Shown in pieces: positions 1,440-31,576 of a DNA stretch of 34,125 bases (position 1 is its first letter; every line of letters begins with the position of its first letter). The notes below the pieces were generated by a model. That model ran no database searches, had not been told where the DNA came from, and saw nothing but the letters and a program-made list of their open reading frames with translations. The DNA lies in the IMG/VR virus record IMGVR_UViG_2563366806_000008, positions 1 to 34,125 of that record. The stretch is one strand, 5' to 3'. A program made the translations under genes and the position numbers. Origin of the DNA: a virus (Duplodnaviria; Heunggongvirae; Uroviricota; Caudoviricetes).

Positions 1440-1446
1440 CCGTTTC

Positions 1447-1533
1447 GCTGAAAAACATAACCCATAAAATGCTAGCTGTACCAGGAACCACCTCCTTAGC
1501 CTGTGTAATCTCCCTTACACGGGCTTATTTTTT
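1447..1533 (+). ncRNA. cyaR: CyaR (RyeE) Hfq-binding small RNA, about 87 nt, ending in an intrinsic terminator
   Basis: Sequence gctgaaaaacataacccataaaatgctagctgtaccaggaaccacctccttagcctgtgtaatctcccttacacgggcttatttttt matches my recollection of E. coli CyaR; stem cctgtgtaa/ttacacggg followed by T-run. Confidence 0.8.
1507..1533. repeat. Prophage attachment core, left copy (ogr-proximal junction): aatctcccttacacgggcttatttttt
   Basis: Exact 27-bp direct repeat of 33612-33638; coincides with the last 27 nt of cyaR; phage genes start immediately to the right. Confidence 0.8.
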
Positions 1534-7047: not shown

Positions 7048-8238
7048 TTAATTGCTGTTAACCGAGGTGACCAGATTTGCCAGGTATTTATCGGTAATAC
7101 GCTGGCGCAGGGTCAGGTTTTCGAGAGGAGGCACCGGTGTATAGTCGTAGTCGATATACAGTTTTCCGGCCTTGAGGGTTTCCGCATCGTTGGATTCTTC
7201 GCTGAACCAGCAGGTCGCATCCACGATATAGCCGTTTGTTTTCAGCTCACGGAATTTGGCATTGATGCCGTCAACGATGTCGCGAATCAGCGTTGCGGTG
7301 ATGGGCTTATCCACCGCCCACATGTGCGCCTCAGCCATCGTGTCGGCCAACACCTGCGCGGTGCGGGTGTAGTTTTCAAAGAGGAACAGCGGGTCATCAG
7401 AGCAGGTACAGTTACCCCAGAAGCGGAAACCGTCGCGGCGAATCAGCGTAGTGACACCTGACTCGTTAAGCAGGTCAGCATCAGTACCGGACTCCTGCAA
7501 ATCCCAGAATACAGATGCGCTGATGCCGGTAACACCGTTCACCCCGACGTTGGACAGCGTTTTATGCCAGCCCTGCTCCTGGTCGATTTTAGCGCGCAGA
7601 CCCAGCGCACGGGCGGTGGCATACGCGGTGGCGGTGGTACTGGCGACCGTATCCCATGCGAGGAAATCCGGCCAGATGACCATCAGCTCACGCTGGCTGA
7701 AATTCTGGCGGTAAGCTTTCACCTCGGAAATGGTTTTACAGCCCCATGCGCTGATATACCCGAAAGCGCGCAGCTTCTGACAGACTGATGCCAGTGCAAC
7801 AGCCACCTCTTTGGTATCCAGCCCCGGCACACCGAGAATACGCGGTTTAACACCGGTTACCGACTCCGCCGCCAGCAGGGCTTTCAGTCCGGTGTACTGA
7901 CCGTTTTCGTCGGTAGTGCCGATGATATTGGAAACGGTCTGCGCGAGTTTCGTTTCCTCGTCGTCGCCGGTGCCGTCTTCCACACGTACGACAACGGTGA
8001 CCGGTTTTGACTGGTCAGCGATGGCCTGTAACGACGCCGCCAGCGTGCCTTTTTTACCGGCCTTTGCAATTGCGCTCTGCACATTGGTAATCAGCACCGG
8101 TTTATTGAGTGGGAAGATTTCCGCATCCGCATCGCTGGCCGTGCAGACCATGCCAACAATGGCGGTGGATACGGTGGAAATGACGCGGGTGCCGTCGTTA
8201 ATCTCCAGCACCTGCACGCCGTGATGATAGTCACTCAT
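7048..8238 (-). CDS. FI: Contractile tail sheath protein FI (396 aa)
   Basis: 396 aa; first gene of the FI-FII-E-T-U-D operon; length as in P2. Confidence 0.85.
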   Translation of the reverse strand: MSDYHHGVQVLEINDGTRVISTVSTAIVGMVCTASDADAEIFPLNKPVLITNVQSAIAKAGKKGTLAASLQAIADQSKPVTVVVRVEDGTGDDEETKLAQTVSNIIGTTDENGQYTGLKALLAAESVTGVKPRILGVPGLDTKEVAVALASVCQKLRAFGYISAWGCKTISEVKAYRQNFSQRELMVIWPDFLAWDTVASTTATAYATARALGLRAKIDQEQGWHKTLSNVGVNGVTGISASVFWDLQESGTDADLLNESGVTTLIRRDGFRFWGNCTCSDDPLFLFENYTRTAQVLADTMAEAHMWAVDKPITATLIRDIVDGINAKFRELKTNGYIVDATCWFSEESNDAETLKAGKLYIDYDYTPVPPLENLTLRQRITDKYLANLVTSVNSN

Positions 8239-8332
8239 CCGTTTAACTCCGTGGTTAATGGGTGCAACTATTTTCTGTTGGGCAGTGCATAAGACGCTAT
8301 TTGACCTGACTGGTCAGTGGATGAAACAACAG

Positions 8333-8362
8333 ATTAAAGAAAAGGCGGGCAACTCGCCCGCC
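8333..8362 (-). terminator. Intrinsic terminator after the cargo gene, upstream of FI
   Basis: Stem ggcgggc (8344-8350) / gcccgcc (8356-8362); on the minus strand followed by ttttctttaat. Confidence 0.5.
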
Positions 8363-8524
8363 CGTCCTGATTTGTACTCACTCATTTTTCAACTGACAAT
8401 TTACATAGCCCAAAAGCTATCAAATCAGACAGTCTGCTTTGAGCCAAAAGCAGACGTTATGGTATGTCAATCAAACAAGAGGAAGTGACCTGCTCCCCGT
8501 TGTGGGTGTGAACCTCATGGGCAT

Positions 8525-9751
8525 TCAACCTTTCAATGCTTCAATCGTATTATTAAGTCGACGCAACAGGTCGTCGTACGTCAATATGTCTATCATGTTG
8601 GCGTACTTACGTTTGATTATCTCAAAATCAAGCAACTGACCGTCGGTCATGTTACCGTTCGCTATCTGATCGCGTCCGACAATGATGATGGCTTTTGGGT
8701 TAGATATACGAATACACATTCCCGCTGGCAGAGAATTCTTGTAGGCATTCGTAAGCTCTTTTTCACCCTTAACACCCCATTTAGATAAATGAAAAATATA
8801 CTTTTCAGCCTGCATAATACCGCCGCTAAGTTCTGATGTAGGAATATAGTTATCGCGATAGGGCGTCTTGCGAAGGATCTTATCATCAAACGGCTTTTTG
8901 ACTTCGATGATATCAAGGTTGCCGTTTGCATCCACCAGTGCAATGTCTATAAACCGATTTGTTTTAGCCGAAGGATTAGAGTAATAGTCGAAAATTTTAA
9001 CCTTCTCGAGGACCTTGATATATTTTGGAAAAAGTAATGTGATGAAGGGTATCATCAGGCTCTGCCAGTCATCTTCAGACAAGTTAGTTTTGTTATTCAA
9101 CGCATCCTGGATAATGTCTCTTATGAGTGTATATTTCTCAATTTCGAGCTTATTTAAAACTTCTAAATCCAGTTTGTCGGTTTTTCTGATCACTGTTTTT
9201 CTGTTTAGGTAATGTTCATACCGTTCGCGAGCATCTTTCATACCATCAAGATAACCTGCGAGAATAGCGTGAACCCTTGCATTAGCATAGCGATCCAGTT
9301 CCCCTGTGTTGGGGAATTTACTTTGCAACTCCTGGAATACGCTTTTTGGTATAGCTTCCGGCTTATCTCCTCCGATGATGATGGGATTAGTGTGATCGAG
9401 TAGTTTTGAAAGCCGACCAAAAATGGAGACGTTGCGTTCTGACGCAAATACTTTCCTTTCAAGCTTGATGGACTTATGTATAAGGACATCTCGATTAATG
9501 CTTAGAATCCGTCCCGGAACTGTTATGTATTCATTATTAAGCGTGCCAAAATTAAAGGAATATTCGTAATCATTAAAATCCTGAACGGTTGACGGTGGGT
9601 TTCTCAAGTCCTGGAGTTGAAAGTTAAAAATTCGTGAAATGCATACTGTTTGAAATTTATTTAAACTCTCCCAAACCCAAATTATTTGTTCTCCGCTGTC
9701 ACCGTCGTAAGTCATAACAACGTCATTTGATACAAAGCTGAACTGTAACAT
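8525..9751 (-). CDS. Cargo protein (408 aa): N-terminal domain of unknown function plus C-terminal PD-(D/E)xK / RecB-like nuclease domain; candidate anti-phage effector, possibly Shedu (DUF4263)-like
   Basis: AT-rich ORF in the G/FI slot with good RBS (agagga) before ATG at 9751; motifs FIDIALVD (D269/D274), IIEVKK (E283-x-K285) and QAEKY (Q314-xxx-Y318) match nuclease motifs I, II, III. Confidence 0.6.
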   Translation of the reverse strand: MLQFSFVSNDVVMTYDGDSGEQIIWVWESLNKFQTVCISRIFNFQLQDLRNPPSTVQDFNDYEYSFNFGTLNNEYITVPGRILSINRDVLIHKSIKLERKVFASERNVSIFGRLSKLLDHTNPIIIGGDKPEAIPKSVFQELQSKFPNTGELDRYANARVHAILAGYLDGMKDARERYEHYLNRKTVIRKTDKLDLEVLNKLEIEKYTLIRDIIQDALNNKTNLSEDDWQSLMIPFITLLFPKYIKVLEKVKIFDYYSNPSAKTNRFIDIALVDANGNLDIIEVKKPFDDKILRKTPYRDNYIPTSELSGGIMQAEKYIFHLSKWGVKGEKELTNAYKNSLPAGMCIRISNPKAIIIVGRDQIANGNMTDGQLLDFEIIKRKYANMIDILTYDDLLRRLNNTIEALKG

Positions 9752-10041
9752 ATTTCCTCTGATTGATAAAACGTCCCATATTTTCCTGATAATTGCATTA
9801 GAGATCCGGCATGAACTGATGCCCGCCTATAATGACTAACTCTGCAATCACTGTCTCGATATTATGTTCATCCCTCATTTTATCCAAGTTATAAAATAGC
9901 AATCACGTAGATAATGACCTGCTCCCAGCAAACTAACATAGCACGATGTAAGCAAGTTCCGCTTTTGGTACAGAGCAGACTGTCAGATTAAGTTTTACTC
10001 TGTGCCATAGATACGTTAGCTCACTCCAGATATCATACAAC

Positions 10042-10569
10042 TTATTGCGGTATTTCCGGCCATTCAGGATTTGCAGGATCCACACGGCTGACCAGAACGC
10101 TGTAGCGTTCCCATGACTCCAGTCGTGCGCGCTCCTCATCCGTCGCCATATTCAGCCTGACGGTGCGTTCCAGCGGCTGGATAACGCTTTCCGCTTCGGA
10201 AAGTAACGCGGCCTTTTGTGATTCGGCCTGTTGTTGCTGTTCGTCTGCCGTATAAATCCGCTTAATCACGGCACCATCCTTAAACATCCATTTACCTGAG
10301 TCATCAGCACGTCGGTTGGCGGTAATATCAGGAACCTCGACAACGCTAAAACCTTCAGGGTTAAGCGTTGAAGCATCTCTGGTGATGCCGACAATTATAT
10401 TATTCTCGTCGTAAACAATCTTTATCGTGTCCTCCTGAAAATTACTTACTTCCTCATACCAGTTTTTTCCCTCTTCGGACCATAACCAGATAACATCAAA
10501 ATTTTTTGTCAGTTGATATTGGGCAACAGTTTTTGGATTACCCGCAATAATATTTTTTAAATGCTGCAT
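10042..10569 (-). CDS. G: Tail fibre assembly chaperone G (175 aa)
   Basis: Immediately downstream of H; 175 aa as in P2 gpG. Confidence 0.8.
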
Positions 10570-15010: not shown

Positions 15011-15754
15011 ATGGATAAATATCAAATCTGGGAAAATCAAAAAGACACCATCGCCCACCAAGAGTATTTAAAAATCTCCGACACCAATTTACTTGGACAT
15101 ATGCATATTGCCAATTACGAAGTTGTCCAACATGAATTAAGCAAATTCAACTCCCCTGACATTGTTTCCCGTCATTCATTTAACAGAGACAAATTTAAAA
15201 AAGAACATTTAAACATATCAAGACACCTTTTCAATTATATATCTTCAGCATTATCATTTAGAGATTCAACGCGCAACCTACTTAAAACAAAAGCATTAAA
15301 TATTGCCGACATTAAAATCAAATCAGAGGCATTCATCAATCATGAATTCCGAAATAATCCAGTAATAAAATTAATGGAGGATTTAAGAAACATCCTGACG
15401 CATCAAAACATGATCGCCCCATCAATATCATCATTCATGCACCTCCAAAGAAATATAAACATGCACGGCTTTTCATTTAAGATTGAAAGAATCTTAAACA
15501 ATGACAGAACCACCAAACAAACAAAAGAATATTTAATCTCACTAAAGCAAAAAAACTTATTCATTTTACCGATAATAGAAGAATACCAATACACGACTCT
15601 TAAGTATCAACACTGGCTTTTAGCAAGTATCTACACTGTTCATCAAGATACTTACCAAGAATACTGGAATGCGAGAAAAAACATCATGAACGAATGGGGA
15701 GGAGACACTCAGCTAATACCTAAAGAGAGTGAGCTCACTTATTTAACCAGATAA
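15011..15754 (+). CDS. Cargo ORF of unknown function (247 aa), opposite strand to the late operons; candidate accessory/defence gene
   Basis: Strongly AT-rich ORF with RBS aagaagga before the ATG; Asn/Lys/Ile-rich; occupies the S/V junction (P2 orf30 position) on the opposite strand; contains R126-x4-H131 (RNILTH). Confidence 0.6.
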   Translation: MDKYQIWENQKDTIAHQEYLKISDTNLLGHMHIANYEVVQHELSKFNSPDIVSRHSFNRDKFKKEHLNISRHLFNYISSALSFRDSTRNLLKTKALNIADIKIKSEAFINHEFRNNPVIKLMEDLRNILTHQNMIAPSISSFMHLQRNINMHGFSFKIERILNNDRTTKQTKEYLISLKQKNLFILPIIEEYQYTTLKYQHWLLASIYTVHQDTYQEYWNARKNIMNEWGGDTQLIPKESELTYLTR

Positions 15755-22332: not shown

Positions 22333-24105
22333 ATGACCATCACCACAGACACCACTCTTTTACACGACCCGCGTCGTCAGGCGGCGCTGCTGTACTGGCA
22401 GGGGTTTTCCGTGCCGCAGATTGCCGCCATGTTGCAGATGAAACGCCCGACGGTGCAGAGCTGGAAACAGCGCGACGGCTGGGACAGCGTTGCCCCCATC
22501 AGCCGTGTCGAAATGAGTCTGGAAGCGCGGCTGACCCAGCTCATCATCAAACCGCAGAAAACCGGCGGTGACTTCAAGGAAATTGACCTGCTCGGACGCC
22601 AGATTGAACGACTGGCACGGGTAAACCGCTACAGCCAGACCGGCAACGAGGCAGACCTTAATCCGAACATCGCTAACCGCAACAAAGGCGGGCGGCGCAA
22701 ACCGAAAAAGAATTTTTTCAGTGACGAGGCTATCGAAAAGCTGGAGCAGATTTTCTTTGAGCAGTCTTTCGAATATCAGTTGCACTGGTATCGCGCCGGG
22801 CTTGAGCACCGCATCCGCGATATCCTGAAATCCCGCCAGATTGGCGCGACGTTTTATTTTTCCCGCGAGGCGCTGCTGCGCGCCCTGAAAACCGGTCATA
22901 ACCAGATTTTTCTGTCGGCCAGTAAAACGCAGGCGTATGTGTTCCGCGAATACATCATCGCCTTTGCCCGGCTGGTTGACGTTGACCTGACCGGTGACCC
23001 GATTGTCCTGGGCAATAACGGCGCAAAACTGATTTTTCTCGGCACCAACTCCAACACCGCGCAGAGCCATAACGGCGACCTGTACGTCGACGAGATTTTC
23101 TGGATACCGAATTTTCAGGTACTGCGTAAGGTGGCATCAGGTATGGCCTCACAGAGTCACCTGCGCTCGACCTATTTCTCCACCCCGTCCACGCTGGCGC
23201 ACGACGCCTACCCGTTCTGGTCGGGTGAACTGTTCAACCGGGGACGCGCCAGCGCCGCCGAACGCGTGGAAATCGACGTCAGTCATAACGCTCTTGCCGG
23301 TGGGCTTCTCTGTGCGGACGGTCAGTGGCGGCAGATTGTCACCATTGAGGACGCCCTGAAAGGTGGCTGCACGCTGTTCGACATTGAGCAGCTTAAACGC
23401 GAAAACAGCGCCGACGATTTTAAAAACCTGTTCATGTGTGAATTTGTTGACGACAAGGCGTCGGTGTTCCCGTTCGAGGAGCTGCAACGCTGCATGGTCG
23501 ACACGCTGGAAGAATGGGAAGACTATGCGCCGTTTGCCGCGAATCCGTTCGGCTCCCGCCCGGTCTGGATTGGTTACGACCCGTCACACCGTGGCGACAG
23601 TGCCGGATGCGTGGTGCTGGCACCGCCGGTGGTGGCCGGTGGCAAATTCAGAATACTTGAGCGTCACCAGTGGAAAGGCATGGACTTTGCCACCCAGGCT
23701 GAATCCATCCGCAAACTCACCGAAAAATACAACGTCGAATACATCGGTATTGATGCCACCGGCCTCGGTGTCGGCGTGTTCCAGCTCGTTCGCTCGTTCT
23801 ATCCCGCCGCACGCGATATCCGCTACACGCCGGAAATGAAAACCGCAATGGTGCTCAAGGCAAAAGACGTTATTCGCCGTGGCTGTCTGGAATATGACGT
23901 CAGCGCCACCGACATCACCAGCTCGTTTATGGCTATCCGCAAGACCATGACCAGCAGCGGACGCAGCGCCACCTATGAGGCCAGCCGCAGCGAGGAAGCC
24001 AGCCACGCCGACCTCGCCTGGGCGACCATGCACGCCCTGTTAAATGAGCCACTCACCGCCGGTATCAGCACCCCGCTGACATCCACCATTCTGGAGTTTT
24101 ACTGA
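22333..24105 (+). CDS. P: Terminase ATPase (large) subunit P (590 aa)
   Basis: Trimmed to MTITTDTTLLHD...; 590 aa as in P2 gpP; followed directly by portal gene Q. Confidence 0.85.
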   Translation: MTITTDTTLLHDPRRQAALLYWQGFSVPQIAAMLQMKRPTVQSWKQRDGWDSVAPISRVEMSLEARLTQLIIKPQKTGGDFKEIDLLGRQIERLARVNRYSQTGNEADLNPNIANRNKGGRRKPKKNFFSDEAIEKLEQIFFEQSFEYQLHWYRAGLEHRIRDILKSRQIGATFYFSREALLRALKTGHNQIFLSASKTQAYVFREYIIAFARLVDVDLTGDPIVLGNNGAKLIFLGTNSNTAQSHNGDLYVDEIFWIPNFQVLRKVASGMASQSHLRSTYFSTPSTLAHDAYPFWSGELFNRGRASAAERVEIDVSHNALAGGLLCADGQWRQIVTIEDALKGGCTLFDIEQLKRENSADDFKNLFMCEFVDDKASVFPFEELQRCMVDTLEEWEDYAPFAANPFGSRPVWIGYDPSHRGDSAGCVVLAPPVVAGGKFRILERHQWKGMDFATQAESIRKLTEKYNVEYIGIDATGLGVGVFQLVRSFYPAARDIRYTPEMKTAMVLKAKDVIRRGCLEYDVSATDITSSFMAIRKTMTSSGRSATYEASRSEEASHADLAWATMHALLNEPLTAGISTPLTSTILEFY

Positions 24106-25139
24106 TGAGCAAGAAAAAAGGGAAAACACCGCAACCTGCGGCAAAAAAAATGACCGCCAGCGCCCCGAAAATGGAGGCATTCACCTTTGGTGAACCGGTG
24201 CCGGTACTCGACCGCCGTGACATTCTGGATTACGTCGAGTGCATCAGTAACGGCAGATGGTATGAGCCACCGGTCAGCTTTACCGGTCTGGCAAAAAGCC
24301 TGCGTGCTGCCGTACATCACAGCTCACCGATTTACGTCAAACGTAATATTCTGGCTTCAACGTTTATTCCGCACCCGTGGCTTTCCCAGCAGGATTTCAG
24401 CCGCTTTGTGCTGGATTTTCTGGTGTTCGGTAATGCGTTTCTGGAAAAGCGTTACAGCACCACCGGTAAGGTCATCAGACTGGAAACCTCACCGGCAAAA
24501 TATACCCGCCGTGGCGTGGAGGAGGATGTTTACTGGTGGGTGCCGTCCTTCAACGAGCCGACAGCCTTCGCGCCCGGCTCCGTGTTTCACCTGCTGGAGC
24601 CGGATATTAATCAGGAGCTGTACGGCCTGCCGGAATATCTCAGCGCCCTTAATTCTGCCTGGCTGAATGAGTCGGCCACGCTGTTCCGCCGCAAGTATTA
24701 CGAAAACGGCGCTCATGCCGGATATATCATGTACGTCACCGATGCCGTGCAGGATCGCAACGATATCGAAATGCTTCGCGAAAACATGGTCAAGTCGAAA
24801 GGCCGCAACAACTTTAAAAATCTGTTTCTCTATGCCCCGCAGGGGAAAGCCGACGGCATTAAAATTATCCCGCTCAGTGAAGTGGCAACGAAGGACGATT
24901 TTTTTAATATCAAAAAAGCCAGCGCCGCTGACCTGCTGGACGCGCACCGCATCCCCTTTCAGTTGATGGGCGGCAAGCCGGAGAACGTCGGGTCGCTGGG
25001 TGATATTGAGAAAGTGGCAAAGGTCTTTGTCCGCAATGAGCTTATCCCGCTACAGGACAGGATCCGCGAGATAAACGGCTGGCTCGGTCAGGAGGTCATC
25101 CGCTTTAAAAACTACTCACTGGACACTGACAACGGCTGA
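24105..25139 (+). CDS. Q: Portal protein Q (344 aa)
   Basis: 344 aa as in P2 gpQ; last gene before cos. Confidence 0.85.
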   Translation: MSKKKGKTPQPAAKKMTASAPKMEAFTFGEPVPVLDRRDILDYVECISNGRWYEPPVSFTGLAKSLRAAVHHSSPIYVKRNILASTFIPHPWLSQQDFSRFVLDFLVFGNAFLEKRYSTTGKVIRLETSPAKYTRRGVEEDVYWWVPSFNEPTAFAPGSVFHLLEPDINQELYGLPEYLSALNSAWLNESATLFRRKYYENGAHAGYIMYVTDAVQDRNDIEMLRENMVKSKGRNNFKNLFLYAPQGKADGIKIIPLSEVATKDDFFNIKKASAADLLDAHRIPFQLMGGKPENVGSLGDIEKVAKVFVRNELIPLQDRIREINGWLGQEVIRFKNYSLDTDNG

Positions 25140-25542: not shown

Positions 25543-26472
25543 TCAAACCAGGCTTTTGCCTTGCTTCATTTTTTTAGATGAGTCTAAAAATTTGAAATTA
25601 TCATTAGATGAAAATATTCTTTCTGCGGTATGCCGAATGACTGAAGTATTGAAGACCGCAGCCTGCTCCTCATTACAACTGAATACACCCTCATGACCAT
25701 CAAACTCGCCCGCCAAAAGAAGGTTTTTTGATACTGGGAACAAAACTAAAGTGTCTTTTACACCAAACCCGGGGGAATAAGGGCCTCGTGCTAATTCAGG
25801 ATTAGTCCACATTAAGCAAACTGGGTTATCTGAAGTTATAAATGACCCTTGCCCATCAGATATGGTCATAAGTGACCAGTTGCGTTGATGCAACAACTTG
25901 GTGATAACAGGTACACATTTCATTTCCATATCTATCATGAACTCTCTGATTACATTGATTTCGAAATTATCCCCATCCACAAAATTTTTAATTTTTTCGT
26001 AAGCGAGATCATATGGCAAAGACTCACCCATTTCTTTCTCATAAGCTAATTTGCAATCGTCCCAACGCTCAGCCGAACTAACTGAGGATTTCATGATAAA
26101 CTTTGCTATTTGTTTCAATGGAGATGATAAATGTTCTCGCTGAGCAGGCGTACGTATTGCCAATAAGGAAATAAACTCCAGAATAACATCTTTGGTTTCG
26201 CCTGAAAACTCGCCCCCCTCCTCAAGTTTTCTTAAATGAGTAGCGACACTGCCTTCAAACTCTGCAAGAGAACTCTCGAGATAGTTTGGGTCAACTCCAT
26301 CCAATTCTAATCGGTTGAAATCTCTAACCCCCCCGACATTGCGAGTATTACTCTCAAAGGTTTTGCGCTCCTTTAAATCTATTACAGTTAATTTTGATTT
26401 TTTCCCCCCATTACTTGTAAACCCTTTCAAATAACATTGGGATAAAAAATGATGATGCCTTGCAACACTCAT
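25543..26472 (-). CDS. DUF4238-type cargo protein (309 aa from Met at 26472); candidate single-gene anti-phage protein
   Basis: AT-rich ORF in the tin/old slot; N-terminal HHFLSQCYLKGF resembles the DUF4238 signature (HH-x-x-P/S-Q-x-YL-x-x-F); RBS ggag before ATG at 26472; ORF extends upstream to 26514. Confidence 0.65.
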   Translation of the reverse strand: MSVARHHHFLSQCYLKGFTSNGGKKSKLTVIDLKERKTFESNTRNVGGVRDFNRLELDGVDPNYLESSLAEFEGSVATHLRKLEEGGEFSGETKDVILEFISLLAIRTPAQREHLSSPLKQIAKFIMKSSVSSAERWDDCKLAYEKEMGESLPYDLAYEKIKNFVDGDNFEINVIREFMIDMEMKCVPVITKLLHQRNWSLMTISDGQGSFITSDNPVCLMWTNPELARGPYSPGFGVKDTLVLFPVSKNLLLAGEFDGHEGVFSCNEEQAAVFNTSVIRHTAERIFSSNDNFKFLDSSKKMKQGKSLV

Positions 26473-26575
26473 ACTCAGCTCCGTTATGGCTATAATCGCA
26501 TAAATAATAAGCACTTATATTGCAATCATCTAGTTAAATACACAATATTTATGACTCCGAAATTTCATTAAATCA

Positions 26576-28789
26576 CTATTGATAGGTTTTACCAATTAGT
26601 GCCAGCTCGAAATGGATGCGTGGAATCTGCGAACGTTCAGCCTTTTTCATCCGCCCTGATGGCGCTATCTGGTACGGTTTTAATGGTTCGCAGTTTCTTT
26701 GTTGCCAATTCGGTCTCGGTGCACCATGTTTTAATGCACTCCTGAGCACCGTCACAACTTCCGGGTCATCCCATCCGATAACACCACTATCAACCAGATT
26801 TAACACCGCTGCGGCATGCTCAGACGGTGTAGGGTGCATAACCGGAACGTCACCGCCGGTGAACTTTCCACAGTTATTGACAGGACTCCGAGGCGCGGCG
26901 ATGCCGCTTTTTAAAGTCAAAGGCTCAACGACCGGCACTTTCGGCACAATGCGCCAGTCCGTCGTTCTGGTGATATGAATATGACGCGCGCCGAGATGCG
27001 GCGCGTAAATGCCGACCACTCTCTCGACTTCTTCCTCGTACTCGTTAACTTCATCCGACGGACTACGGGCGACCCTGACAGTCTGACAATCGCGCGGGAC
27101 ATTTGCCCCGCCCTGCGCGCTGATATACAACGCAAAATCACCACTGTCTGCGGCGGCGCGTGCAACCTCGACGCGTTCGTCAAACTCATCAGCAATGCTG
27201 ACGCCGCGAGGCAATTTGCGTAGTTCACGGTAAGCCCCCATTGTCGGCAGGCCAACCGTTTTAAATTGCGGGATGCGCCACGTTGACGCCCATGCGGTAA
27301 CAGCCGCCGCTGTGTCTTTCAGCGGCCTGCCGGTATCGTTATCGAGCTGACCATCCAGTGCATAGCCGTCGATGTTTTTTGAAATGTATTTCGCGATATA
27401 TCCCGCAGCACCGCCCCGGTTAAGGTGTTTTGCCTGAAAACGGTTTCGCGCAGCTCCTCTTTCGTCTCCATCCTCTTTGAGCGCGTAGCGACGCATGATT
27501 TCGATAATCTGGTTACGCTGGCGTGGATTACAAAAAAGCATCATATGCCAGTGCGGCGTTCCGTCGTGGTGTGGCTCGACGACACGCAAACCGTAGACCT
27601 GTAAATCATTATCCTTGAATGCCGTGCGCATCAGGCTCCAGATGCGGCAGAGATAACGCTGCGCATCCTTTGGATTAAATGCCTCATCGTTCCAGCCGTG
27701 ATTAAGCTGAACGGTTTTACTTTCGCCTTTTCTGACCTGACGTGTCGGGTGATACTTTGACGGCGCGGTCAGCGTGATAAACATCCCCACATCACCCTCT
27801 GCGGCGGCGTAACGCTCAATACCGGCAATGGTGTTCATCAGCTCCATCCGGCGAATTTCAGGATTAGAAATACTGCCCATCACCTTACTGATAAGGTCGA
27901 TGCGCTCGCCGGTTTCCCTGTTTTCAAGGTCACACGATTTAAGAAATTCCAGATTTGCCTGGCGGCGTGCACGCACATCACGAATGGCATGTTTACTGGC
28001 ATAAGGAGAACGGTCTTTATTGACCTCCCCGACAGCAATCAGTAACGCCTCATGCCAGCGCATACGCTGGCCTTTAAGCTGATGAGTCCACCACTCATCG
28101 TTAAACAGACGGGCAATGGCAGAATATGCCTGCCTCGTGGTCATCTGCCCTTTACGGTATTTTTTCCAGTAGAGCGGGGAAATATTGAAAGCACGTGCAG
28201 CGCCAGCAACATGACCATAGAGGTGAGCCTGCGCCTCATCCGTAAACAGCGATTCTTTTTCGCCATGCGCATCCACCCAGGCATCGCTGAGTTCCTCATA
28301 CATCATGAAAAGCTGCGATGAGATACGGGCAGCAAACTTTTTTAGCTCCTTATCATTCATTCCCGGCAGGCGCGCATAGTGGTCACGCTCTGCCAGAAAC
28401 AGTAACGACGCGTCGGTGTTCATTTCATGGCGCTGATTCACACGCTCAATGCGCGGCCATAAACGACGCTGAAAAGTGGATGTGAGGAAATAAAACCCGT
28501 GCACCGGGCTTTTATTGCGCCGGATGTAGTCATAGCGTGAAGTAAACAGCGAGCGCAAAAAGTAAGGCAGGCGGTTAATCGTGGATAAAACACCTTGCAC
28601 CTGACGCATCTCGTCACGTGTAAGGGGTCTTTCGCGCCCGACGGCCTCGCGTGGCGCGTTCCATGCATAAGCACCGGTAAACGCCTTACCGGTGCCTGCG
28701 GCAAATGCTGGCGGAGGGACAAAACGCCCGGAGGCTTTAACGGCCATATGAGCCAAAAGCCTCTGAACAACGCTTGCTGAGTTGCTCAA
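26576..28789 (-). CDS. A: Replication initiation protein A (rolling-circle nickase, 737 aa)
   Basis: Large last gene of the early operon; N-terminus MSNSASVVQRLLAHMAVKAS...; somewhat shorter than P2 gpA as recalled (761 aa). Confidence 0.8.
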   Translation of the reverse strand: MSNSASVVQRLLAHMAVKASGRFVPPPAFAAGTGKAFTGAYAWNAPREAVGRERPLTRDEMRQVQGVLSTINRLPYFLRSLFTSRYDYIRRNKSPVHGFYFLTSTFQRRLWPRIERVNQRHEMNTDASLLFLAERDHYARLPGMNDKELKKFAARISSQLFMMYEELSDAWVDAHGEKESLFTDEAQAHLYGHVAGAARAFNISPLYWKKYRKGQMTTRQAYSAIARLFNDEWWTHQLKGQRMRWHEALLIAVGEVNKDRSPYASKHAIRDVRARRQANLEFLKSCDLENRETGERIDLISKVMGSISNPEIRRMELMNTIAGIERYAAAEGDVGMFITLTAPSKYHPTRQVRKGESKTVQLNHGWNDEAFNPKDAQRYLCRIWSLMRTAFKDNDLQVYGLRVVEPHHDGTPHWHMMLFCNPRQRNQIIEIMRRYALKEDGDERGAARNRFQAKHLNRGGAAGYIAKYISKNIDGYALDGQLDNDTGRPLKDTAAAVTAWASTWRIPQFKTVGLPTMGAYRELRKLPRGVSIADEFDERVEVARAAADSGDFALYISAQGGANVPRDCQTVRVARSPSDEVNEYEEEVERVVGIYAPHLGARHIHITRTTDWRIVPKVPVVEPLTLKSGIAAPRSPVNNCGKFTGGDVPVMHPTPSEHAAAVLNLVDSGVIGWDDPEVVTVLRSALKHGAPRPNWQQRNCEPLKPYQIAPSGRMKKAERSQIPRIHFELALIGKTYQ

Positions 28790-29822: not shown

Positions 29823-30323
29823 TTAATGCAGATATTGCTCTGGTTTTACCGACGTCAGAATTGTCGGTGCATACTCAAACAGGCTGAATAATTCACGTAA
29901 TGCACGGAATAAAGCATCACGCCAGTAACATGACTCTTCATTAATTCGCCAGTATGGCTGGTTGAATTCTTTTTCAGTCAATCCGGCATGCATAAATAAA
30001 GTACGACGCTGACTGACTGTTAAAAAACTAATATATGCATACTCACTTGCGCCAACCTGACGGCGTTTTGAGAATGCCCCACGCAATTCATCAATTGCAC
30101 ATACCAGTCGTTCACGTTCGACATCATTCATTTCTTCAAAACGCATCGTTGCGTGACGCTGTTTTAACTGCGCATGGAAGCAAACCGTTAGCCGTTCACG
30201 TTCCATCATCTGATTATAATAATCGCATGTCTCCTGCCAGCGAGGGACGGCCAGATGCTTACCAATTATCCGGCGCATAGCTGCTGGCTGTTTTTCAACA
30301 AGATTGAGCGTCATCACTGTCAT
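29823..30323 (-). CDS. B: Replication protein B (166 aa)
   Basis: 166 aa as in P2 gpB; RBS ggaggg before the ATG; position between cox side and A. Confidence 0.8.
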   Translation of the reverse strand: MTVMTLNLVEKQPAAMRRIIGKHLAVPRWQETCDYYNQMMERERLTVCFHAQLKQRHATMRFEEMNDVERERLVCAIDELRGAFSKRRQVGASEYAYISFLTVSQRRTLFMHAGLTEKEFNQPYWRINEESCYWRDALFRALRELFSLFEYAPTILTSVKPEQYLH

Positions 30324-30355: not shown

Positions 30356-31576
30356 TGTAGATTCAATCTGTCAATGCAACACCCCTTTCAATTATCTCTT
30401 TCGGTGTTTTGAACTTCAGTGTCTTTCTCGGTCTGTTGTTTAGCTGAGCAGCAACCAGATCTAGTTCATGTTGAGTATATTGGGCAAGACATGTCTTTTT
30501 AGGAAAGTACTGCCGAATTAGCCCATTTGTGTTCTCATTTGTTCCCCGCTGCCAAGGACTCTGAGGATCGCAGAAGTAAACTTTAACGCCGGTGCTGACA
30601 GTAAATTCTAGATGTCTGGCCAGTTCCATTCCTCTGTCCCATGTCAGTGATTTTCTGAGTTCTGACGGTAAACTCAGGAATTTGTCGGTAAGAGCCTGAT
30701 TTACTGAGACAGAATCTTTGCCCCTGAGTCTAAGGATGATCGTATAACGTGATTTTCGGTCTACAAGTGTGGCTATATGAGAGTTTTTTGTACCTGAGAC
30801 TAAATCGCCCTCCCAATGCCCCAGAGAGCGTCTGTTATCGATATTTCGGGAACGTTCGTGAATTGGTGTTCCGTTCACTATGTTAATCGTACCTCTTTCG
30901 CCTTTGCGGGTATGACGCCTGCCATGGCGAAGGCTATGCGACCGTCGCAGATGCTGTATATTCAGGTGGTGTAGCGCTTCACGGCTACGAAAGTACAGCG
31001 TTTTATAAATTGTCTCAGGTGATATTCGCAGCGTTTTTTGACGTGGTTTTGTTCGCCTTAACCATCCTGATATTTGCTCTGGAGACCATTTCATCTCCAG
31101 CTTTTCCAGAACAAGCTTTCGCAATGGTAAATTTTGATCCAGTAAGCACGGTTTTGGCCTTTTCGCCATTCTGTTGGCTCGGTTATTAGCATCAACAGCT
31201 TTGTAATAGCGTCTGCCCCGATTACGCTGAACTTCACGTGAGATCGTCGAAGGACTGCGATTCAGCGCAGTAGCTATCGCACGAATGCTCATTTTGGCTG
31301 ACAAACCAGCTCGTATCTCCTCGCGCTCAGACAGTGTCAGGTGAGCTACAGCCCGCTTACGCTCATGGGGTTTTATGCCGCCAGTATCCCTTAACATAGT
31401 GAAGATCGTTCCGGGTTTTGAACCCAGGATATTCGCTATTTCACTGAAGCCTGTTCCGTTCTTCCATAGTTCAAAAACAGAGGCTTTTTCCTCTGCTGTA
31501 AATGTTCGTCTCATTCAAAAAACCTCCGCAACCCCATGTTTTCACATAACTGTTGCGTTGACCAATTGAATCTACA
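30356..31576 (-). mobile_element. IS30 insertion sequence, 1221 bp, with imperfect 26-bp terminal inverted repeats and 2-bp AG target-site duplication
   Basis: Ends tgtagattcaatctgtcaatgcaaca (30356-30381) and tgtagattcaattggtcaacgcaaca (reverse complement of 31551-31576); flanking AG at 30354-30355 and 31577-31578. Confidence 0.9.
30363..31514 (-). CDS. insI: IS30-family transposase (383 aa)
   Basis: Translation MRRTFTAEEKASVFELWKNGTGFSEIANILG... with HTH N-terminus and DDE catalytic region; 383 aa as for IS30 transposase. Confidence 0.9.
   Translation of the reverse strand: MRRTFTAEEKASVFELWKNGTGFSEIANILGSKPGTIFTMLRDTGGIKPHERKRAVAHLTLSEREEIRAGLSAKMSIRAIATALNRSPSTISREVQRNRGRRYYKAVDANNRANRMAKRPKPCLLDQNLPLRKLVLEKLEMKWSPEQISGWLRRTKPRQKTLRISPETIYKTLYFRSREALHHLNIQHLRRSHSLRHGRRHTRKGERGTINIVNGTPIHERSRNIDNRRSLGHWEGDLVSGTKNSHIATLVDRKSRYTIILRLRGKDSVSVNQALTDKFLSLPSELRKSLTWDRGMELARHLEFTVSTGVKVYFCDPQSPWQRGTNENTNGLIRQYFPKKTCLAQYTQHELDLVAAQLNNRPRKTLKFKTPKEIIERGVALTD

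Follow-up and report, generated by a model that had tools for sequence, protein, structure and literature searches.

The closest described system is EcSduA of Escherichia coli KTE10, a homotetramer of 195 kDa whose properties were established by SEC-MALS, cryo-EM and nuclease assays (Loeff, Walter, Rosalen and Jinek, bioRxiv 10.1101/2023.08.10.552762; hereafter Loeff et al.). According to this study, each protomer consists of an N-terminal domain without structural relatives (residues 1-145), a helical linker (146-188) and a DUF4263 PD-(D/E)xK nuclease domain (195-408). A 17-Å clamp, built from two N-terminal domains, admits only a free, slightly unwound end of double-stranded DNA stabilized by W25, and the duplex passes across an active site containing E226, Q230, D269, E283, K285, Q314 and Mg2+, where the 5' strand is nicked approximately 13-14 nt from the end. 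Defence is lost in alanine mutants of E226, D269, E283, K285, residue 314 and W25, and the nuclease domain on its own is toxic to E. coli (Loeff et al.). In vivo, EcSduA leaves circular plasmids untouched, while linear fragments transform approximately 10-fold less well; restriction of phages T2 and T6 exceeds 30,000-fold, with no culture collapse at an MOI of 5, and T6 escapers carry mutations in uvsW (Loeff et al.). The scissile phosphate lies approximately 12 Å from the catalytic centre in the published EcSduA-DNA complex. Loeff et al. also pointed out that Shedu is found in P2 prophages at the Z/fun hotspot.

A second relevant system is PD-T4-8, a DUF4263 protein from E. coli ECOR31 that was obtained by selection with T4 and validated as a native-promoter clone on a panel of ten phages by Vassallo et al. 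(2022; PMC9519451), who also described a second defence hotspot of P2 at the fun locus. This protein was classed as 'Type 1B' Shedu by Gu et al. (bioRxiv 10.1101/2023.08.10.552793), and no full-length homology between it and the Shedu protein of Bacillus cereus was detectable (Vassallo et al.). The B. cereus system (Doron et al., 2018; Gu et al.) resembles EcSduA in the toxicity of its truncated nuclease, but possesses a sensor of an unrelated N-terminal class; EcSduA makes end-directed nicks. Finally, KELShedu of E. coli (PMC12577705) also employs a Shedu-type nuclease effector, but is a two-component system that requires KELA, a separate protein that binds dsDNA, and works through abortive infection, in contrast to the single gene found in the present cassette.

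The window analyzed here (the whole stretch of 34,125 nucleotides) contains an open reading frame of 408 codons plus stop on the minus strand (positions 8525-9751, ATG start), which was present in the program-made ORF list and is flanked by two P2-type tail genes, G (tail fibre assembly, 10042-10569, minus strand) and FI (tail sheath, 7048-8238, minus strand). A PDB sequence search showed that its deduced product is identical over its full length (100%, 408/408 residues) to the 'Shedu effector protein' of entries 8PS4 and 8PS5, and that 8PS6, an N-terminal construct crystallised on its own, matches its residues 1-188 without a difference. An exact-sequence look-up identified the protein as ELC07825.1, found on 409 contigs, and ELC07825.1 is the entry synthesised as EcSduA from strain KTE10 (Loeff et al.). 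The ORF is thus almost certainly sduA, which makes up an anti-phage system of Shedu type I on its own and is carried as Z/fun moron cargo by a P2-like E. coli prophage. Since all 408 residues are identical, the architecture, catalytic residues, tetrameric state, nickase mechanism and T2/T6 defence of EcSduA apply directly. The protein shows no difference from that of KTE10; only the surrounding prophage differs, in that a DUF4238 system and an IS30 insertion are also present here and another gene occupies the V/S slot. In RefSeq the same protein is recorded as WP_001515542.1, 'Shedu immune nuclease family protein', located between tail fibre assembly and sheath genes; a scan against NCBIfam release 20 yielded no match at E ≤ 1, and the RefSeq name must therefore stem from another kind of evidence.

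The gene, its structure, mechanism, catalytic mutants, phage range and location in the P2 Z/fun locus have all been published previously and are not new. The suggestion of the first-pass annotation that this system may be undescribed is consequently refuted by the identity with EcSduA (8PS4/8PS5/8PS6, ELC07825.1), and what it called an unknown sensor domain is the characterized DNA-end clamp of Loeff et al. The experiments it had proposed likewise have published answers: the question of structure is settled by the cryo-EM work of Loeff et al., a native-promoter clone was challenged with a phage panel in the case of PD-T4-8 (Vassallo et al.), and mutation of D269, E283 and K285 to alanine causes loss of function (Loeff et al.). 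The family, the catalytic residues and the role had been read correctly from the raw sequence, from which the earlier characterization could not have been known.

An older record of the same gene was found in GenBank entry AJ512677 (P2-EC31 proviral Z-region, ORF1; Nilsson et al., 2004), which shares 99.6% DNA identity with a 1.86-kb region of the window including the flanks and inverted repeats, and which carries annotations of a left and a right inverted repeat, of a -35 and a -10 signal and of a 'putative lysogenic conversion protein'. The two sequences differ by seven substitutions and a 1-bp deletion in AJ512677 at window position 8792, and the sequence of ORF1 implies the replacements T121N and C346R relative to the window protein. 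The deletion shifts the reading frame, which accounts for the annotated length of 362 aa, and is probably a sequencing error, because PD-T4-8 of the same strain ECOR31 (RCP52534.1) measures 1227 nt. PD-T4-8 and ORF1 of the P2-EC31 Z-region are the same gene in the same G/FI slot. Among 5,426 complete E. coli genomes, the cassette occurs in this slot in 53, in which the 1.9-kb region is covered to at least 80%, and a further 1,662 match its flanks only, corresponding to P2-like prophages with other cargo.

As established by others for this exact sequence, SduA acts as a homotetramer in which paired N-terminal domains clamp a free end of double-stranded DNA. End binding places the duplex over the PD-(D/E)xK site, where the 5' strand is nicked approximately 13-14 nt in. 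Circular DNA of host and plasmids is spared. The phages blocked are those with linear, recombination-dependent replication intermediates (T2 and T6, and T4 for the ECOR31 allele), with escape through loss of the UvsW helicase. The same protein could instead protect by abortive infection, in which the infected cell dies or arrests, rather than by cell-sparing destruction of phage DNA ends. According to Gu et al., PD-T4-8 had been proposed as an abortive system, 12 of the 21 systems studied as native-promoter, low-copy clones by Vassallo et al. were assigned to this category by the MOI dependence of protection, and the toxicity of the lone nuclease domain points in the same direction. However, EcSduA cultures infected with T6 at an MOI of 5 grew as uninfected controls did (Loeff et al.), which corresponds to direct immunity, and circular DNA was untouched by the enzyme in vivo. 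The studies supporting either mode differ in expression levels and in the phages used. Abortive infection is therefore regarded as an unlikely, albeit not negligible, mode of action of this protein. The published accounts were found to disagree on mechanism in this one respect (abortive infection for PD-T4-8, direct immunity for EcSduA), and no evidence speaks against the identification itself; direct immunity through nicking of phage DNA ends is the reading retained here.

The intergenic block between G and FI (8239-10041) comprises 1803 bp with a GC content of 0.405, compared with 0.515 for the window and 0.561 for FI, in agreement with the AT-rich block of about 1.8 kb noted in the first pass. 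Homology of the backbone with phages P2, Wphi and vB_EcoM-12474III stops at position 8459 and resumes at 9954-9966; since it thus covers the outer parts of the block, the variable cargo is confined to approximately 8460-9953 (about 1.5 kb, GC 0.40). Within these limits, only the sduA ORF is present, flanked by 65 bp and 202 bp, and because no second gene would fit into the cassette, this is a single-gene system. The earlier reading of the locus as single-gene anti-phage cargo in the P2 Z/fun slot was therefore sound: sduA is the sole ORF of the cassette, and defence has been published for the identical protein.

A repeat search revealed an inverted repeat at the edges of the cassette. The inner core of the FI-side arm (8423-8454, 32 nt) is situated in conserved backbone at the cassette edge, the whole arm being annotated in AJ512677 as 'Right inverted repeat' (approximately 8365-8455), while the inner core of the G-side arm occupies 9958-9989 (whole arm in AJ512677 approximately 9957-10069) and was recognized by the repeat search, the AJ512677 annotation and conservation. 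The two cores are 84% complementary, their inner ends bound the cassette exactly, and the repeat is kept in all four phages compared (P2, Wphi, 12474III and the window prophage). Each arm is also able to form a hairpin of its own, and the arms may serve either as terminators or as sites of recombination. In P2 and Wphi, the same slot, with the same inverted repeats and backbone terminator, contains a gene for a 299-aa protein (orf44 of Wphi) unrelated to SduA, and in vB_EcoM-12474III it contains a gene for an SMEK-domain protein, likewise unrelated to SduA and encoded on the opposite strand; the same arms thus flank three unrelated cargos, namely those of P2/Wphi, 12474III and the window prophage. 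The cassette would be one of many alternative cargos swapped between conserved inverted repeats. An 11-nt direct repeat, GACCTGCTCCC, was also observed within the cassette, 32 nt inside each inverted-repeat arm (8487-8497 and 9916-9926, plus strand); it occurs twice only in the window and is of marginal significance, since 5 of 100 shuffled sequences gave at least two matches with one mismatch allowed. Rousset et al. (2022), whose survey covered the Q/A hotspot alone, made no mention of Shedu.

The position in this slot also bears on the older view of the gene as a lysogenic-conversion determinant acting on host physiology, in the manner of P2 Z/fun (FUdR sensitivity, T5 exclusion), with no nuclease-based defence. 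Apart from the shared slot, this view has the 'putative lysogenic conversion protein' label of AJ512677 in its favour, but that annotation dates from 2002, precedes the description of Shedu and was based on the frameshifted sequence. Moreover, SduA does not resemble the protein encoded in the slot of P2 (best BLASTP E = 0.97), and mutations of the catalytic residues abolish defence. A purely physiological role is thus very improbable and, for practical purposes, refuted, leaving Shedu defence as the function of this cargo.

Several candidate expression signals were located around sduA. The sequence directly 5' of the ATG codon reads AGAGGAAAT and, as the first-pass annotation had proposed, includes a ribosome-binding site of the gene's own, AGAGG (9756-9760, minus strand), 4 nt before the start. 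A putative cassette promoter, TTGGAT-17 nt-TAATAT (9859-9887, minus strand; -35 at 9882-9887 and -10 at 9859-9864), corresponds to the -35 and -10 signals annotated in AJ512677. It agrees with the consensus at no more than 8 of 12 positions and escaped a consensus scan; the ECOR31 allele is active as a native-promoter clone. Downstream, a strong intrinsic terminator with a GC-rich stem followed by a T-run was detected by a terminator scan (8333-8363, minus strand), its stem at 8343-8363 consisting of nine pairs, seven of them G-C. The downstream hairpin terminator ascribed to the gene in the first pass does exist, but its conservation in P2, Wphi and 12474III identifies it as part of the backbone and not of the cargo. 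A weak terminator-like hairpin, recognized by consensus match only, was found inside the cassette at 8479-8498 (minus strand), 27 nt past the sduA stop codon; overall, eight terminator-like sites were observed in the region against 1.4 expected from shuffled sequences. No Ogr-type dyad TGT-N12-ACA, sought as a sign of the FI late promoter, was present between 8239 and 8460, and this pattern was rarer in the window than in shuffled sequences; Rfam and tRNA scans of the cassette yielded no match. In a lysogen, sduA would be expressed from its own weak promoter within the cassette, and its transcript would be expected to end at the terminator of the backbone, before the FI late promoter region is reached.

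At the protein level, the only Pfam family matching at E ≤ 1 was SduA_C (PF14082, formerly DUF4263), with a score of 115.6 bits against a gathering cutoff of 27 (E = 3.1e-33). The match spans residues 224-396 and model positions 2-159 of 159. The PADLOC SduA model PDLC04067 was matched over its full length (residues 1-407 on a model of 407 positions, E = 9.9e-220), a second PADLOC model, PDLC00388, gave E = 2.9e-171, and PHROG 18241, a family of unknown function, gave E = 2e-254. The motifs FIDIALVD (residues 267-274), IIEVKK (281-286) and QAEKY (314-318) occur in this order, with D269, E283, K285 and Q314 exactly where the first reading had placed them, and the catalytic set E226, D269, E283, K285 and Q314 is complete and in order in EcSduA numbering, together with Q230 and the sensor-domain residues W25 and R106. 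The architecture is that of type I Shedu, with an N-terminal sensor, a linker and a C-terminal nuclease, as indicated by the position of the Pfam domain and by the identity of residues 1-188 with 8PS6. With the domain limits of Loeff et al., the DNA-end clamp including W25 (codons 1-145) is encoded at 9317-9751, the α-helical linker (codons 146-188) at 9188-9316, and the SduA_C nuclease domain (codons 195-408), defined by the Pfam match, the residue check and the published mutants, at 8528-9169, all on the minus strand. The two-domain DUF4263/Shedu assignment made from sequence alone is confirmed by these searches. The nuclease is indeed C-terminal, although it exceeds the 140 residues initially allotted to it, as the Pfam match begins at residue 224 and the published domain, beginning at residue 195, takes in E226 and Q230 of the active site.

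The comparison with RecB and Cas4 drawn in the first pass holds at the level of the superfamily only, in that no RecB, Cas4, PDDEXK or NERD model was matched in Pfam at E ≤ 1. The whole protein contains two cysteines, C37 and C346. Nucleases of the Cas4/AddB type carry an Fe-S cluster motif of four cysteines, and such a cluster is ruled out by the content of two. An enzyme of the RecB/Cas4 or NERD type engaged in phage recombination or DNA processing, to which only the D...ExK...Q motif order common to the PD-(D/E)xK superfamily would point, has a negligible probability and is rejected on the Pfam, PADLOC and PDB results, given that SduA_C stands alone in Pfam, the defence model is matched over the full length and phage defence has been shown for the identical protein.

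The remainder of the prophage contains further accessory elements. In the Q/A (tin/old) hotspot, a gene for a 323-aa DUF4238 protein (25543-26514, minus strand) is located between Q (24105-25139) and A (26576-28789), with matches to Pfam (E = 5e-39) and to the PADLOC model DUF4238-Pers (E = 2e-219); the DUF4238 single-gene system was validated as active against T7 (Rousset et al., 2022). An IS30 copy of 1221 bp (30356-31576), with terminal inverted repeats of 26 nt and a transposase gene (30363-31514, minus strand) encoding HTH_38 and rve domains, is inserted in the early operon, where it separates the cox side from a 166-aa ORF at 29823-30323. The same early-operon arrangement exists in other E. 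coli genomes free of the IS30 interruption, and owing to this insertion the prophage may be replication-defective. The CyaR/RyeE sRNA gene (1445-1530, plus strand; Rfam RF00112, 100.7 bits) is flanked by yegQ (1-1362) on one side and by the ogr end of the prophage on the other, which places the prophage at the yegQ-cyaR-ogrK locus.

The third classical moron slot of P2 lies between V and S, at the position of orf30 (PMC6823313). In the window it is occupied by an ORF of 247 aa (15011-15754, plus strand) with a GC content of 0.33, the lowest in the prophage, whose product has no match in Pfam, PADLOC or PDB sequence searches. In strain 20A24, whose prophage is otherwise nearly identical, this slot is occupied by an unrelated gene, and the 247-aa ORF was found in none of 76 sequenced P2-like phages and in 18 of 5,426 complete E. 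coli genomes. An exhaustive profile search retrieved 337 distant relatives, some of which are fusions of approximately 700 aa, and none of the 40 relatives tested belonged to a curated family in Pfam, PADLOC or PDB sequence searches. In an alignment of 80 sequences, N35, N75, R126 and H131 are invariant and N127 nearly so, defining a DLR-N-x-x-L-H motif. AlphaFold run on this alignment produced a confident helical-bundle model (pLDDT 94, pTM 0.89), whereas an earlier AF2 model from six sequences was unusable (pLDDT 57); Foldseek searches with the confident model returned nothing significant from PDB or BFVD. The Rx4H motif bears a tentative resemblance to that of HEPN RNases.

Taken together, the prophage possesses at least two known, validated defence systems, Shedu in the G/FI slot and DUF4238 in the Q/A hotspot. 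The protein family in the V/S slot, with its confidently predicted fold, invariant R-N-x3-H signature and no relatives among known families, offers a better prospect of new biology than sduA does. P2 DNA is circular during replication, and 5' overhangs of 19 nt are present at its cos ends; for both reasons P2 itself might be spared by EcSduA, in which case sduA would serve mainly as a weapon between mobile elements. It is conceivable, though rather doubtful, that EcSduA expressed from its own weak promoter in a P2-like lysogen behaves otherwise than in plasmid systems, or that the cassettes are swapped at the inverted repeats by a dedicated recombination mechanism rather than by ordinary homologous exchange. 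If true, behaviour in the native context could explain why PD-T4-8 has been considered an abortive infection system and EcSduA one of direct immunity.
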